From: Naegleria gruberi
Lineage: Eukaryota
NCBI GenBank assembly: GCA_000004985.1
Contig: GG738846.1
DNA length: 64,000 nt
Strand: one strand, 5' to 3'
Shown: positions 49,685-57,225 of the stretch, one piece after another
Numbering within the stretch: position 1 is the first letter of the stretch
Layout: every line of letters begins with the position of its first letter
Program-made: the position numbers and the translations under genes
Notes under the pieces: generated by a model
Seen by the model: only the letters and a program-made list of their open reading frames with translations
Databases searched by the model: none
What the model was told of the DNA's origin: nothing

Positions 49685-50585
49685 ACATTAATTTAATAAT
49701 TCTTTTATTGATATTGAAGTTCTTATTATTTTTCTCTTAATTGGCAAATCAAATGATGAGGACACAGAACAAATTGTATTCGAATTATTGATTGAATTAG
49801 TTGAGGATGATATTGTTGAGAAAGTTAAAAGTGGAGTGATGGAATCAATGGATGAATTTGATGAGGATTGATTCGATCTTGTTTCTTCACTCAATGTTTC
49901 TCTATTATTTTCTCTATTACATTTTGTAATGAATTGACAATGTTTCTTCTTCTTTTCAATTTTGCTTTTCTTTTTCATAATTGGTGAAAATTCATTGAAA
50001 AATTGTTTCAATTCATTTTCATAGGGTTGTAATTTGGAAGGTGAAAATGTGTGTTGTTGTGTATTGAATAATTCTGTCGATCTGACAATCATTTGAGCAG
50101 CACCACCAGTTGTTGTAGTGCATTTCTTCTTTGAAGGTCTTCCTCTCTTCTTTGGTATTTGATTTGTCGAATGATTATCATTATTATTATTGGTTGCTGA
50201 AGAAAAATCAACAATTGAAAATTTGTTATACTTGAACTTGTTATTGTTCAACATCATGTCTATCTATTAAGAATATGTTCTTTGAAAAAGTTTAAATATA
50301 GAGAGAGTGAGAGAGGGTGGATATTTAAAAAAAAAACACTGTTGATGTGTGTGTTCTTCTTATATTGTTGGTGTTATAATTTGTTTTTTTTGAATAATGT
50401 CTAGTCCAACTAATCAGCGGTTGGGTTTCTAAGGGTTTTTTCGTTAGAGGTGTTGTGTCGGAGATTCTTAAATACAATTATTGCTTCTATCTGATATTTA
50501 AGATTTGGTAATTTGAAGGTGTGATGTCGGAGATTCTTAAAGAATATTCATTTCCTTAATGGTTGCAAATAGAATGGATAAGAAT
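49685..50585. repeat. Right arm of the inverted segmental duplication. Its partner is 35800-36632.
   Basis: See the left-arm entry. This arm also contains a local direct duplication of GTGTCGGAGATTCTTAAA at ~50455 and ~50525. Confidence 0.75.
49688..50257 (-). CDS. Small AT-hook protein, paralog family member A', a near-identical inverted copy of 36048-36629.
   Basis: 189 aa with the same motifs. It differs by a few substitutions and a short internal deletion (..NSNTICSVSSSFDLPIKRK..). Confidence 0.65.
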   Translation of the reverse strand: MMLNNNKFKYNKFSIVDFSSATNNNNDNHSTNQIPKKRGRPSKKKCTTTTGGAAQMIVRSTELFNTQQHTFSPSKLQPYENELKQFFNEFSPIMKKKSKIEKKKKHCQFITKCNRENNRETLSEETRSNQSSSNSSIDSITPLLTFSTISSSTNSINNSNTICSVSSSFDLPIKRKIIRTSISIKELLN

Positions 50586-51121
50586 CTTAATCATGATATA
50601 GAATATCAGATAAGGAAGAGTTGATTAACTTTTGTGGAACTATGGACATCCATGATGACAGTTATTAGTTGGAGCTATTATAAATAGAGAATTTGGATTG
50701 CCTTTTTTATCGAATCTCTATTGTTTATTGGGAGGTAATAATATACAAACTCAATTTTATATCAAGTACAACTTATCAATTTGGAAGAGAGGACAATTAG
50801 GAAAAATTAATTGAATTTATTACTTTTTAAACTTATTACCATGGTAACCTCTTTGATAGCTAATAGTGACACAATTTCTCAAGTACTTTGCAATGGACGA
50901 TTCATCTTTGAGTATCATACAACCTTCCAAACTCTTCCAATGATAGATTACTATATTGTTCTACAATATTTCTCAAAAAGAAAACATGAAACATGATTAA
51001 TTTACACGAAACTTGGTTGGCTTCCCATGATTTTTCACATCTTTCAGAGTCTGATTCGTTCAATCTGGATAATTGAGGATACATCTTGATTACCCATAGA
51101 GCATTTCTGATAGAAGTTTCC

Positions 51122-52840
51122 TCAACGATGGATTTCTTTACAGCTCCAGGTTAGTTTGCTTTCGCCTAAAATTGAAAGTTTTGGAAGAAATTCACCAAGG
51201 TTTGGACAAGAAGATTTCAATCTCTCCTTTTCTGTGTTGTTAAATTGATTAACTTGATGCTCGAAACGTTTAACAATTCTAGGAAACTTTTCACTTAAAT
51301 AAATTAACCATCTATGGAAATACATATAACCATACAATGCCTTAATTGAGGCATGAGTATTACCCTTCATGATTTCAACGACCATAGAATTCATCAGCTT
51401 ACACATGAGATCTGCATAAACGACCCAATTATCAAAATTTGGTTTCTCACAATGATTGTAAACTGTTGGATGAGAATTGTAAATTTCTTGAATTGACTTT
51501 TTCAATCTCTCAAAATTTCCATGTTTTCTATTAATGTAAATTGGAATCCAATGTGTGAATGTTGATCCCCAAACACTCTTTCTGACTCTCTCTTCATAAA
51601 ATGACTTTCTGGAGAGGAGATCGAGTGGTGAGGAGATGGAGGCAACTGTGCCATCTTTCTTCGTTTCGAATGAGAGACCAATACCAAGTATATCCTCCTT
51701 GAAACTTTCTTTCGAATGGTAACAAATTAATTCTCGTGCAGTGGAGAGAAGTTTGTACTCACACAATTCGAGGAGATGTTTGCTTGATTTTTCGACTTTC
51801 TTCAAATCAGAGTGAGTTAAATAGGTGAGAATGTGCAGGAGAATTTCATTTGGAATGTCATTGAATGAAGTGTTTGGAGCTTGAACTCCCTTTTCAACTG
51901 TGCCAACGTTGGTAGTTACATCAACACCAGTATCTTCTGTGAAGATAGAATTGACTAGCTCAGGTGCTGTAGAAGTGGAAGTAGTTACTGGAAGAGGTGT
52001 TGTTGCAGATTCATTTGTAAATTTAACGAAACCCATTTGATTTAGAATTTTGAGGAGGTAATTTTGAATATGTGAAATAATGGATACACTGTATGATAAC
52101 GGAGGTTCAACAGGAGTAGCTAATTCTTCCTTGATTTCTTCCTTTGGTTTAGTTTTCTTTCCAATATCTTCTTGTTCCATTGTTTCAACCTTGACAACTG
52201 ATTTCTTTTTCTTATTCTTCTTTGGCTTGCTAACTAGAGTACTAACTAATTCTTTCTCCTTCTTTGGAACAATAGCTTTCTTAACCACAATTGGTTTTGG
52301 CTCATATTTGGAAGTCAATATTTCATTAACATTCCAATGAGGAGCACACGGATAAACAACGCCATTGGAAGGATCGTGTCCAGTTTCATCAAACTTGAAT
52401 GCTCTGGAAAGCTCAATATCAGCTTGAATGAATCCAGCTTGTCTTTCTTCTTCCTCCAAGAGAAAAGATTGCAATTGAAGCAACACAGACAAACATGAAT
52501 AGCTTGTACTCCATCCCATGTAAGGAACTTGAGAAAAGTGATTACTCTCCAAAATATCCAAACAAATCCAACTTCCAAATACATGTGAGTGATGCAATCT
52601 GGTGAGACAATTAATAGTTGGTGGCTTATTTGGATAATCGAGTGGAAAATCAATTTCCAACAAGAGAATAATTCCACGATACTTGGAAGTTTTTGGAGCT
52701 AGCACAGTTGCGTACCACTTGAATAAATCTCCCTTGAATGGTTCTGCATAGACAGTTTCTAATGGATTCATTTGAATTTCTTTCAAATCTTTCATTAATC
52801 TTTTAAGAACTCGATCTTGCTTGTTGTTGTTTGATAACAT
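51122..52840 (-). CDS. Ubiquitin-conjugating enzyme (UBC/E2) fold fused to an F-box protein.
   Basis: 572 aa. The N-terminal UBC-like region is RVLKRLMKDLKEIQMNPLETVYAEPFKGDLFKWYATVLAPKTSKYRGIILLLEIDFPLDYPNKPPTINCLTRLHHSHVFGSWICLDIL. The catalytic Cys is retained, but the HPN triad reads HSH. An F-box-like motif, IPNEILLHILTYLTHSDLKKV, sits near residue 335. Confidence 0.55.
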   Translation of the reverse strand: MLSNNNKQDRVLKRLMKDLKEIQMNPLETVYAEPFKGDLFKWYATVLAPKTSKYRGIILLLEIDFPLDYPNKPPTINCLTRLHHSHVFGSWICLDILESNHFSQVPYMGWSTSYSCLSVLLQLQSFLLEEEERQAGFIQADIELSRAFKFDETGHDPSNGVVYPCAPHWNVNEILTSKYEPKPIVVKKAIVPKKEKELVSTLVSKPKKNKKKKSVVKVETMEQEDIGKKTKPKEEIKEELATPVEPPLSYSVSIISHIQNYLLKILNQMGFVKFTNESATTPLPVTTSTSTAPELVNSIFTEDTGVDVTTNVGTVEKGVQAPNTSFNDIPNEILLHILTYLTHSDLKKVEKSSKHLLELCEYKLLSTARELICYHSKESFKEDILGIGLSFETKKDGTVASISSPLDLLSRKSFYEERVRKSVWGSTFTHWIPIYINRKHGNFERLKKSIQEIYNSHPTVYNHCEKPNFDNWVVYADLMCKLMNSMVVEIMKGNTHASIKALYGYMYFHRWLIYLSEKFPRIVKRFEHQVNQFNNTEKERLKSSCPNLGEFLPKLSILGESKLTWSCKEIHR

Positions 52841-53619: not shown

Positions 53620-54712
53620 TTATTTTTTGGCGCGAAGTTTCTTTCCCATAGAGAGAAAGGTTTCGGCCAGCAGTTTTCTAAAGTCTGAATACTTGATTCG
53701 AACAGTTTCATTCATAATAGCGAACAAGTTATAAAAAAAATCATTCAATAAACTGATCATCAATTTGGTTCTCCACTCAGTGATGATATAGGCATATCTA
53801 GCCTTATAATGGTACTTATCTTGAATGTCGACAAGAGTAAAAGTACGTCTATAATGGTCATGATGGATAGCAGAGGTAGCATTAAATTGATTCTGATCAA
53901 ACGAATGCAAAGCATGTAGTTGAAGTGATTTGACATTTGTGGAGTTGCAAATAAATTGAATCTTCTGGATGATTTCATCCTTAGTGAGCTTACTTAATTT
54001 GATATGTTCCTTCTTTCCAATTTCTTTCAATTTTTCCACTGTATTTTTCTGCAAAAAGGAGGTGGAATATTTGCAAGAGTTTGCTGAGATGGTTGGTAGT
54101 GAAATTAGTGAGGTTTCAAAATCAAATGCATTCGAAACAAGATGGTGATATTTCTTGTCTCTGTCTGATTGGTATTGAGGATTTCTTTGCATAGAAGCAA
54201 TCACAGACTTTGAAATAAATTCAGCAGCCTTCCAATTACCATGAGTGAGCGTTCTTTTCAACAAATCCCAGATCCATAATTTTTCAGTACCTGAAATAGA
54301 GAAAGTGCCAACAACATTCAATTTGATTAGACGGAGCAAAACATTTCATCAAAGAAAAGTATCTTCTATAACCAGGAATCATGCTATCCAACTTTTCTGT
54401 CCGAAGCTGTTGTAAATTGGTTTTGGCATTAGCATTCAACTTTGAATGGTTGTTTTCTAAGCTAATTACAGTTCCCAAAAAAGAGAAAAGCTGAGAGATA
54501 TCAATATCATTGTAATACTTTGTGTGTGAAGATGCTTTTCCAGTTGTACTCTCTCTGGTCAAGTTAGTGTTTAATACGTCCAATAGTATTTGCCAAAAGT
54601 GGTTTGGAATCATGTTTGAAATTAGAAGTTCAAGGCTAACCTCAGTGCAAATTACATTTCTGTTCAGAATGGTTTTAGGAGTGGTAGGAGTTTCGGTAAC
54701 TTTAGGATGCAC
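53620..54712 (-). CDS. Hypothetical protein, probably 2 exons.
   Basis: ORFs 54284-54712 and 53620-54339 are joined by a putative 52-nt intron (GTTTTG...TTTCAG at ~54295-54346). The join gives ...YFSLMKC|TEKLWIWDLL.... The 5' splice site is weak, so the boundaries are approximate. Confidence 0.35.
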
Positions 54713-55503: not shown

Positions 55504-57225
55504 TCAACAGATATCAAGTGATGTCAATTGTTTCATTTCAATTATTGATTTGGCTCCTTCATCACCGATTTGATTTCCACTAATATCAAGTGATGTTAAT
55601 TGTTTCATTTCACTTATGAATTTGGCTCCTTCATCACCAATTCGATTGATATAAATACTAAGTGATGTCAATTGTTTCATTTCACAAATTGATTTGGCTC
55701 CTTCATCACCAATTAGATTGTTATAAACACTAAGTGATGTTAATTGTTTCATTTCACTTATGAATTTAGCTCCTTCATCACCAATTTCATTTTCACCAAT
55801 ATTAAGTGATGTCAATTGTTTCATTTCACTTATTGATTTGGCTCCTTCATCACCAATTAGATTGCTATAAACACTAAGTGATGTTAATTGTTTCATTCCA
55901 CTTATGAATTTAGCTCCTTCATTACCAATTTCATTTTGACCAATATTAAGTGATGTCAATTGTTTCATTTCACTTATTGATTTGGCTCCTTCATCACCAA
56001 TTTCATTTTCACCAATATTAAGTGATGTTAACTGTTTCATTTCACTTATTGATTTGGCTCCTTCATCACCAATTTGATTGAAATAAATATCAAGTGATGT
56101 CAATTGTTTCATTTCACTTATTGATTTGGCTCCTTCATCACCAATTAGATTGTTATAAACACTAAGTGATGTTAATTGTTTCATTCCACTTATGAATTTA
56201 GCTCCTTCATCACCAATTTCATTTTGACCAATATTAAGTGATGTCAATTGTTTCATTTCACTTATTGATTTGGCTCCTTCATCACCAATTTCATTTTCAC
56301 CAATATTAAGTGATGTTAACTGTTTCATTTCACTTATTGATTTGGCTCCTTCATCACCAATTTGATTGAAATAAATATCAAGTGATGTCAATTGTTTCAT
56401 TTCAATTATTGATTTGGCTCCTTCATCACCAATTTGATTTTCACCAATATCAAGTGATGTCAATTGTTTCATTTCAATTATTGATTTGGCTCCTTCATCA
56501 CCAATTTGATTGCAAAAAACACTAAGTGATGTTAATTGATTCATTCCACTTATGAATTTAGCTCCTTCATCACCAATTCGATTGTTATAAATACTAAGTG
56601 ATGTTAACTGTTTCATTTCAATTATTGATTTGGCTCCTTCTACACCAATTAGATTTTCACCAATATCAAGTGATGTTAATTGATTCATTCCACTTATGAA
56701 TTTGGCTCCTTCATCACCAATTCGATTGTTATAAACACTAAGTGATTTTAATTGTTTCATTCCACTTATGAATTTAGCTCCTTCATCACCAATTTGATTT
56801 TCACCAATATCAAGTGATGTTAATTGATTCATTTCACTTATTGATTTGGCTTGTTCAAGAGAGTCAAGCAACCTTCTCGAAAATTTAACATTGACAATAC
56901 TATTCATAAATTGACTTTTCATGAATAATTTAATTCGTTTCTCTGTAAATTTTTTGTTAAATTCAATAACGAGTTTTGAACGTTCCTTGATCACATGAAA
57001 GAATTGTTTTGAAATCAAAGAACAATTATTCAAAATAAACCACGAATCATCAATCATGGAAATTATTTCAAAACAAACATCATCCGAAAATATTTCTTGG
57101 AGCACAAGTTTTTTCTTTTTTGTTTTCTCTTCCATGTTATTTTTGATCCGAAATTGCTTTTCAAAATCTTGAATGCTTCGTTTACTCATTTTTTTGTGTT
57201 TGCGAAAATGCCTCAACATTACCAC
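55504..57225 (-). CDS. F-box-like / leucine-rich repeat protein with ~21 RNI-type (LRR_6-like) 24-aa repeats.
   Basis: 573 aa. The N-terminus has LVLQEIFSDDVCFEIISMIDDSWFILNNCSLISKQFFHVI. The repeats alternate LTSLDIGENQIGDEGAKSIIEMKQ and LTSLSVYNNLIGDEGAKFISGMKQ as a 48-aa super-unit. Confidence 0.7.
   Translation of the reverse strand: MVMLRHFRKHKKMSKRSIQDFEKQFRIKNNMEEKTKKKKLVLQEIFSDDVCFEIISMIDDSWFILNNCSLISKQFFHVIKERSKLVIEFNKKFTEKRIKLFMKSQFMNSIVNVKFSRRLLDSLEQAKSISEMNQLTSLDIGENQIGDEGAKFISGMKQLKSLSVYNNRIGDEGAKFISGMNQLTSLDIGENLIGVEGAKSIIEMKQLTSLSIYNNRIGDEGAKFISGMNQLTSLSVFCNQIGDEGAKSIIEMKQLTSLDIGENQIGDEGAKSIIEMKQLTSLDIYFNQIGDEGAKSISEMKQLTSLNIGENEIGDEGAKSISEMKQLTSLNIGQNEIGDEGAKFISGMKQLTSLSVYNNLIGDEGAKSISEMKQLTSLDIYFNQIGDEGAKSISEMKQLTSLNIGENEIGDEGAKSISEMKQLTSLNIGQNEIGNEGAKFISGMKQLTSLSVYSNLIGDEGAKSISEMKQLTSLNIGENEIGDEGAKFISEMKQLTSLSVYNNLIGDEGAKSICEMKQLTSLSIYINRIGDEGAKFISEMKQLTSLDISGNQIGDEGAKSIIEMKQLTSLDIC
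55510..56870 (-). repeat. Near-identical 72-bp (144-bp super-unit) coding tandem repeats within the LRR gene.
   Basis: TCAAGTGATGTCAATTGTTTCATTTCA[CA]TTATTGATTTGGCTCCTTCATCACCAATT... repeats about 19 times with only a few substitutions per unit. Confidence 0.85.

Follow-up and report, generated by a model that had tools for sequence, protein, structure and literature searches.

The hemiRING-UZI module that closes UBR4 was reportedly first described in 2024, as an architecture that lacked close relatives; only the RING-UZI parts of UBR1-3 are similar, and weakly so. Rad6-type ubiquitin-conjugating (E2) enzymes are the partners of the UBR ubiquitin ligases (E3s), and in UBE2O and BIRC6 a UBC domain and substrate-selecting elements are found in one polypeptide that is able to act without a separate E3. 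In UBR4 itself (human residues 4831-5183; structures 8B5W and 8BTL), the hemiRING-UZI module binds UBE2A and activates UBE2A~Ub; in particular, the hemiRING binds the E2 and a loop of the UZI part (GG4979/4980) activates E2~Ub (PMC10873205). Here we describe a gene on the minus strand (50820..52840) of a 64,000-nucleotide (nt) stretch of Naegleria gruberi nuclear DNA with a G+C content of 28-38% (the window, to which all coordinates refer). The reading that we favor, with moderate confidence, is that the gene is a member of a large protist family whose products combine a UBC domain, a disordered linker, an F-box and a ~340-aa (amino acid) module like that of UBR4, and that such products are E2-E3 hybrids with an F-box that docks Skp1.

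The likeness to UBR4 extends over the fold of the whole module, a beta subdomain followed by ~11 helices, and to the setting beside an E2, which for UBR4 is UBE2A acting in trans and here would be the fused UBC domain. The family differs from UBR4 in that there is no detectable sequence similarity between the modules, in that the C2HC site of UBR4 (C4838, C4841, H4887, C4890) is set against a conserved C-x-H ... H, and in that the module ends a 574-kDa UBR-box protein in the one case, whereas in the other it ends a ~600-700-aa protein, placed behind an F-box and with the E2 fused covalently. The likeness to UBR1-3 is much weaker than that to UBR4, and here there is neither a UBR box nor a canonical RING. 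UBE2O and BIRC6 also join a UBC domain to substrate-engaging elements in one chain, but both lack an F-box and a RING-like E3 module, and their CR1/CR2 and BIR elements are unrelated to the domains of the family. The receptors of Skp1-cullin-F-box (SCF) ligases (Fbxw, Fbxl, Fbxo) likewise carry an F-box directly N-terminal to a folded C-terminal domain; here, however, that domain resembles not WD40 or leucine-rich repeats (LRR) but an E2-binding ligase module, and an E2 is fused upstream.

A minus-strand ATG-to-stop open reading frame (ORF) of 572 aa spans exactly 51122..52840. The parts recognized within it are as follows.

52307..52801, minus strand: UBC (E2) domain, aa 14-178, delimited by model confidence and Foldseek (Pfam core aa 14-134, 52439..52801)
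52583..52591, minus strand: H84-S85-H86 (CAC TCA CAT), the HPN counterpart, opposite H75-P76-N77 of UBE2D1
52562..52564, minus strand: Cys93 (TGT), the catalytic Cys in WICLDIL, opposite the UBE2D1 catalytic Cys and invariant in alignment A3
51881..52288, minus strand: linker rich in Lys, Pro, Glu and Thr, aa ~185-320, predicted to be disordered and not conserved
51758..51865, minus strand: F-box, aa 326-361 (IPNEILLHILTYLTHSDLKKVEKSSKHL), Pfam F-box-like
51143..51739, minus strand: first 199 aa of the module (aa 368-566) in the frame of the ORF, comprising helices one to five and, before them, the beta subdomain (CYHSK ... INRKHG)

Pfam UQ_con (PF00179) matched aa 14-134 of the ORF with 76.7 bits (cut-off 27; profile positions 1-115 of 140), and a phmmer search against PDB sequences matched 306 E2 chains, the top one being UBE2D1 (E=1.8e-18). 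When the ORF was modeled with AlphaFold2 (AF2), the predicted local distance difference test score (pLDDT) was ~90 or more across aa 10-180, and Foldseek retrieved with this model 423 E2 structures at E<=1e-3, with a target-normalized template-modeling (TM) score of ~0.75 (Rad6, UBE2A, UBE2D). Thus the alpha/beta fold of a UBC domain is present by both the model and the structural matches. The canonical C-terminal helices are replaced in the model by a family-specific helical extension made up of a helix and a short motif. As to subfamily, Rad6-type E2s, which include the partner of yeast Ubr1 in the Ubr1-Ubc2 structure (7MEY), are among the nearest to the fused domain; 2yb6 is its top Foldseek match, and 5v0r, 1jas and 6cyo rank high in the PDB profile search. 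UBE2D and Rad6/UBE2A/B score about equally by both HMMER and Foldseek, however, so that the Rad6 subfamily is not settled and Rad6-type E2s are not singled out as the closest.

Immediately after the UBC core (aa ~150-165 of the ORF, 52346..52393), most members from outside Naegleria carry in alignment A1 the motif F-x-C-x-x-C-x-H followed by W-P, of which the Naegleria proteins retain the His (H155) and the Pro (P164) and nothing else. The motif of these relatives could be half of a zinc site.

The linker has pLDDT values mostly <50, except in a helix at aa 253-268, and is gappy and variable in alignment A1. It is followed by the F-box, which was matched by Pfam F-box-like (PF12937) at aa 326-361 with 26.6 bits (cut-off 24.3) and by Pfam F-box (PF00646) with 17.3 bits, under the 20.5 cut-off. 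The sequence retains the pattern (L/I)P-x-E-(I/L)-L...I-L...L...D-L...V, the region appears in the AF2 model as three or four short helices (pLDDT 63-77), and the F-box matches of relatives are as strong as E=2e-12.

The ~340 aa after the F-box are the best-conserved part of the family (mean column identity 43% in alignment A2). They gave no Pfam match at E<=1, and their sequence profile gave no match among PDB sequences at E<=10. It was structural comparison that identified the domain; in particular, the module was modeled by AF2 from P0001, an intact N. gruberi paralogue, using 342 aa and a 20-sequence alignment. The model (pLDDT 90.7; predicted TM score, pTM, 0.90) consists of a small beta subdomain (residues 1-70) and then about eleven helices. 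The sole significant Foldseek match of this model was 8b5w ('Crystal structure of the E3 module from UBR4'), with E=2.4e-5, prob 1.0 and TM 0.61/0.60; the runner-up had E=0.22. The fold is accordingly of the UBR4 type, with a RING-like beta subdomain on an 11-helix UZI bundle, and as modeled the Naegleria-type module is far closer to that of UBR4 than the UBR1-3 parts are.

We searched exhaustively with a profile of the module (HMMER, cluster representatives at E<=1e-3) and found 2,831 representatives, 1,024 of them at E<=1e-30, with lengths of 233-2,331 aa; 48 were then scanned with Pfam and 208 with hidden Markov models (HMMs) built from our own alignments. Relatives occur in Heterolobosea (Naegleria, Willaertia, Acrasis, Percolomonas), in Amoebozoa (Cavostelium, Pelomyxa, Pyxidicula, Pellita, Protostelium), and also in the diatom Seminavis and in Amoebophrya. 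Among the 48 diverse members scanned with Pfam, UQ_con was found in 40 and F-box-like in 21, and additional domains were LRR (10), RRM (7), TerD (6), zf-CCCH (4), CLU, VWA, S1, ankyrin and SPRY. Where at least 250 aa lie upstream of the module, our own HMMs detected a UBC domain in 97 of 105 proteins, and it was always N-terminal. An F-box was detected in 53 of the same 105, always between the UBC domain and the module and at a median of 7 aa ahead of the latter. The order of UBC domain and then F-box is kept in the relatives from Heterolobosea, Amoebozoa and the Stramenopiles-Alveolata-Rhizaria (SAR) supergroup. The conserved core is thus an E2 plus a UBR4-like module, with the F-box usually wedged against the module. 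(Note that the database names of the relatives, such as 'ubiquitin-conjugating enzyme family protein' and 'F-box domain-containing protein', are automatic.)

Much of what an earlier note had read from the letters of this DNA alone is borne out by these results: a UBC domain and an F-box do lie in one polypeptide and a single frame, both being above the Pfam gathering cut-off (the F-box by way of F-box-like), the predicted structure confirms the UBC fold, and the survey of relatives that the note had called for found the same fusion in three large groups of eukaryotes. The description of the architecture as rare did not survive that survey. The suggestion that the protein might be a self-contained E2-E3 unit gains support from the UBR4-like module after the F-box, although not from the features that had been cited for it. 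We also considered, and rejected, the idea that two genes had been fused through a missed intron; the UBC domain and F-box share one uninterrupted frame, and their order is kept across several supergroups.

If the favored reading of an E2-E3 hybrid is correct, the polypeptide would work as follows. Cys93 of the UBC domain would be charged with ubiquitin by the ubiquitin-activating enzyme (E1), and His86 would stabilize the oxyanion intermediate in place of the HPN asparagine, as was suggested for UBE2W's HPH motif. The C-terminal module would dock its own UBC domain, in the way that the hemiRING-UZI module of UBR4 docks UBE2A, and would promote discharge of the ubiquitin; it is this docking in cis that would make the polypeptide an E2-E3 hybrid. 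The F-box, held rigidly beside the module, would bind Skp1 and so connect the hybrid with a cullin scaffold or with some partner bound to Skp1. In other members, substrates would be recognized by the added LRR, RRM, CCCH, TerD, VWA, SPRY or ankyrin domains. A hint of docking in cis comes from the AF2 model of the full ORF, which has a pTM of 0.66 despite ~130 disordered residues; we estimate that a value of ~0.45 would be expected if the folded parts (~170 and ~240 residues) were not confidently placed relative to each other. More tentatively, and as a proposal that we would not yet back over its alternatives, the family could be a new class of ubiquitin ligases, three in one and widespread among free-living protists (Discoba, Amoebozoa, SAR), in which an active HxH/HPN E2, a cis-activating relative of the UBR4 module that lacks the C2HC signature and is possibly zinc-free, and an F-box linking to Skp1/cullin would place E2, E3 and E3 functions in one gene.

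The finding that the UBC domain and the module almost always occur together, while about half of the proteins that have both are without a detectable F-box, argues that the conserved partnership is that of E2 and module rather than that of F-box and module. This bears on the principal rival explanation, which we consider unlikely and according to which the protein is a classical SCF receptor with a built-in E2: the helical domain would bind substrate, the UBC domain would be activated by Rbx1, like a Cdc34 tethered in cis, and the likeness to UBR4 would reflect shared ancestry of fold and not E2 binding. Such a receptor would be expected to have its F-box directly N-terminal to a folded domain, as is the case here with an F-box over the Pfam threshold, and the absence from the module of the zinc ligands of UBR4, together with the resemblance of the family UBC domain to the generic RING-dependent E2s UBE2D and Rad6, would sit comfortably with it. 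However, domains of the kinds that typically bind substrates (LRR, RRM, SPRY, ankyrin, VWA) are found separately elsewhere in the family, which allows a core catalytic role for the conserved module; the latter, moreover, matches an E2-binding E3 module both specifically and over its full length.

Several points weigh against the hybrid reading with its F-box that docks Skp1. UBR4 and the module are linked by structure only, the sequence identity being 11-13% and the PDB profile search empty. Moreover, the zinc ligands of UBR4 (CxxC...HxxC) are not conserved in the module, whose beta subdomain keeps C6 (20/20 sequences), H8 (18/20) and H73 (20/20) and has no CxxC and no HxxC, and docking of the E2 in the manner of UBR4 is therefore something that we infer. 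The hint of contact in cis is drawn from the pTM value and not from an inter-domain error map. In the UBC domain, the Pfam match stops at position 115 of 140 and leaves the canonical acidic loop that follows helix 2 (CES/D site) unmatched, so that the domain may react differently from standard E2s. The F-box scores barely over its threshold, besides going undetected in so many of the relatives. Finally, the copy in the window may be unexpressed, and its lesions, to which we now turn, could be errors of assembly.

Full-length relatives measure 600-900 aa and extend ~160 residues past the end of the ORF. Consistent with this, we found that the gene continues downstream of the ORF, and that it is homologous from end to end with P0001 (734 aa) and with a near-identical intact copy, P0059. 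The latter (NAEGRDRAFT_76881, 233 aa) was found by a profile search with the C-terminal region and lies on an N. gruberi contig of 3,703 bp; its protein is 100% identical to that of the window over its residues 1-88 and 97% identical over the following 78. With P0001 and P0059 as tblastn queries against the window, the high-scoring segment pairs (HSPs) fell in frames -1, -2 and -3. The features of the locus are as follows.

50820..52840, minus strand: entire gene remnant, split into three collinear pieces that each have a different reading frame, from tblastn and three-frame translation
51122..52840, minus strand: ORF, 572 aa, of which the final 6 residues (CKEIHR) are out-of-frame read-through past a 2-nt deletion
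52810..51143, frame -1: HSP with P0001 residues 13-575, 55% identity
51144..50911, frame -2: HSP with P0001 residues 576-653, 85% identity
50924..50835, frame -3: HSP with P0001 residues 692-721, 60% identity (18/30)
51143..51144, minus strand: frameshift with 2 nt missing, where the window reads TGG AGC T/GTA AAG against LTWSSVKKS in the intact copy, and the HSPs overlap by 2 nt
50911..51142, minus strand: the module's following 77 codons (VKKSIVEETS...EEFGRLYDT), in the second frame, 97% identity to P0059 and 85% to P0001
50910..50912, minus strand: deletion junction with CT microhomology, at which 42 codons (NYGCPPRTKSGDLLEDVLQREIFRIQQVSTFQQYFEYVGVRN in P0059) and 2 nt are lost
50820..50909, minus strand: last 29 codons (KDESSIAKYLRNCVTISYQRGYHGNKFKK) and TAA (50820..50822) in the third frame, the ancestral C terminus with the conserved GYH motif of the family

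In total, ~107 codons of the same gene lie downstream of the ORF in other frames and 42 codons have been deleted, which indicates that the gene originally ended not at 51122, where the ORF stops, but at the TAA at 50820..50822. P0059 is uninterrupted at the first break, where it reads LTWSSVKKS. At the second, it contains 42 residues (NYGCPP...YVGVRN) that are absent from the window and that belong to a segment kept in all full-length relatives. (Note that the ~128-nt size of the second deletion was inferred from the protein comparison and not from the DNA of the P0059 contig.) Introns were rejected as the cause of the frame changes, the homology to P0001 and P0059 being continuous at both junctions and the HSPs abutting or overlapping, with no space for an intron.

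The first frame break falls at an invariant Trp (aa 565) in the sixth helix of the module. The predicted product of the window copy ends six out-of-frame residues past Ser566 and is without the helices from this Trp on (~43% of the module), so that some 40% of the helical bundle would be missing; the second deletion removes a further two helices. The module is thus incomplete in this copy, both through the broken frame and through the loss of 42 codons. The UBR4 hemiRING is unstable without the UZI part, and its authors were unable to express the hemiRING alone (PMC10873205); by this comparison the module of the window copy is probably non-functional. From the lesions as they stand in the assembled DNA, the window copy is probably a null or crippled allele, with a near-identical intact copy elsewhere in the assembly, and the locus is probably a defective copy that represents one haplotype of the gene. 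Since the out-of-frame pieces are so nearly identical to the intact copy, the lesions are either recent or errors of assembly.

The latter possibility leads to another explanation, namely that the gene is intact in the organism, that draft-assembly errors or a collapsed haplotype account for the 2-nt and ~128-nt gaps, and that the true product measures ~690 aa. We find this doubtful. On the one hand the pieces downstream are 97-100% identical to P0059 at the protein level and carry no signs of decay, every residue conserved in the family is retained upstream, and small contigs duplicate parts of the scaffold region, which suggests that haplotypes were merged imperfectly; on the other, a clean deletion of 42 codons with microhomology at its junction is atypical of base-calling error, two independent lesions fall within one gene, the annotators modeled just a 99-aa partial protein here, and an intact version on a separate contig is what would be expected if the haplotypes truly differ. 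A further small contig holds a protein that clusters at 90% identity with an ORF neighboring this gene, and such duplication fits separately assembled haplotypes.

The only existing annotation at the locus is a 99-aa 'predicted protein, partial' (P0215), which is identical to residues 1-99 of the ORF. This model and the separate 233-aa fragment on the small contig can now be seen as one gene in two assembled copies that differ by frame-breaking deletions. N. gruberi has at least four paralogues of the gene, P0001, P0002 and P0216 being on other scaffolds. At two of these four loci, namely P0216 and the present one (P0215), the annotation is confined to ~100-aa partial UBC models; the family is therefore systematically under-annotated in this genome.

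We compared the active site of the UBC domain with that of UBE2D1 and with those of the family. In the alignment with UBE2D1, LHHSHVFGS-WICLDIL stands opposite IYHPNINSNGSICLDIL. As the earlier note had stated, the HPN motif upstream of the Cys is changed to HSH and the Cys is retained, in an (I)CL(D/S)IL context; the distance from motif to Cys is one residue shorter than in UBE2D1. The tripeptide was compared in 134 UBC domains of the family: 57 have HPN, 11 HPH and 9 HSH, and the remainder have mostly (H/R)-x-H. The HPN-bearing relatives share the architecture of the HSH protein. The third motif position, compared across 121 family UBC domains, is N in 64, H in 49 and another residue in 8 (N or H in 113 of 121), and the catalytic position is occupied by Cys in 119 of 123 aligned domains. 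In the catalytically active UBE2W family the native motif is HPH, whose second His has been proposed to replace the asparagine in oxyanion stabilization (PMC4630614, PMC11649903). Like the protein described here, UBE2W thus has a histidine for the HPN asparagine in an E2 that keeps its catalytic Cys; unlike UBE2W, the middle residue here is Ser and not Pro. We considered kinship with UBE2W for this reason and rejected it, since the motif is HSH and UBE2W lies outside the 60 best PDB matches of both the protein and the family profile. H and N alternate within the family, so that the change arose independently.

Ubiquitin E2 variants (UEVs) have a UBC fold without the catalytic Cys, and the presence of Cys93 places the domain outside that group. 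A UEV-like dead domain is therefore unlikely as judged from the motifs, the Cys and the N or H being kept family-wide and HPH being native to active UBE2W, although charging of Cys93 itself is inferred. The suggestion, also made earlier, that the domain is a UEV-like, catalytically dead ubiquitin-binding module on an SCF adaptor that has lost its oxyanion asparagine can draw on the HSH motif, on its shortened spacing to the Cys and on the unmatched C-terminal stretch of the canonical UBC profile, but we regard it as very improbable in view of a Cys that is invariant in alignment A3, the near-constancy of both positions across the family, the canonical-HPN relatives with the same architecture and the activity of the HPH E2s.

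The building blocks of these proteins are all of known kinds; the combination, and the protist relatives of the UBR4 module, appear to be undescribed. In the literature we found no description of a UBC-F-box or a UBC-hemiRING/UZI fusion, with a search whose coverage was incomplete, so that an earlier mention is possible. If the reading of an E2-E3 hybrid is true, the orphan E3 module of UBR4 gains a family and an evolutionary context, proteins of a small and tractable size (~600-700 aa) become available for studying how the module engages an E2, and a new type of E2-E3 hybrid takes its place alongside UBE2O and BIRC6. Moreover, the natural series of HPN, HPH and HSH within one family is useful for probing the third residue of the motif.

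Among the neighboring genes of the window (BRCA2-like, LRR protein and unannotated ORFs) we found no functional link to the UBC-F-box gene. Three of the neighboring ORFs exactly match N. gruberi proteins (EFC49851, EFC49857 and EFC50044) of a 1,001,995-bp scaffold, which marks the window as nuclear DNA of this species. EFC49857 (46289..47170, plus strand) shares a 90%-identity cluster with the 174-aa N. gruberi protein EFC35776, which is on a 10-kb contig; this is a second sign that parts of the region are duplicated on small contigs, probably of alternative haplotypes. Just downstream of the gene, a 189-aa ORF rich in Asn, Ser and Lys (49688..50257, minus strand) has an AT-hook-like KRGRPSKKK and no Pfam match. 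ORFs of 239 and 142 aa (53620..54339 and 54284..54712, minus strand), neither of them matched by Pfam, overlap by 56 nt in different frames; an intron or a further frameshift may divide a single gene here. A 573-aa leucine-rich-repeat protein (55504..57225, minus strand; LRR_6, 302.9 bits, 11 stretches) has the same peptide repeated 288 nt apart (55971, 56259), which points to near-identical tandem repeat units in its DNA. Finally, a 1,584-aa ORF (40157..44911, plus strand) in which Pfam recognizes the helical, OB1 and OB3 domains of BRCA2 (83, 119 and 24.5 bits, respectively) is the BRCA2 homologue of N. gruberi, encoded in a single long exon.

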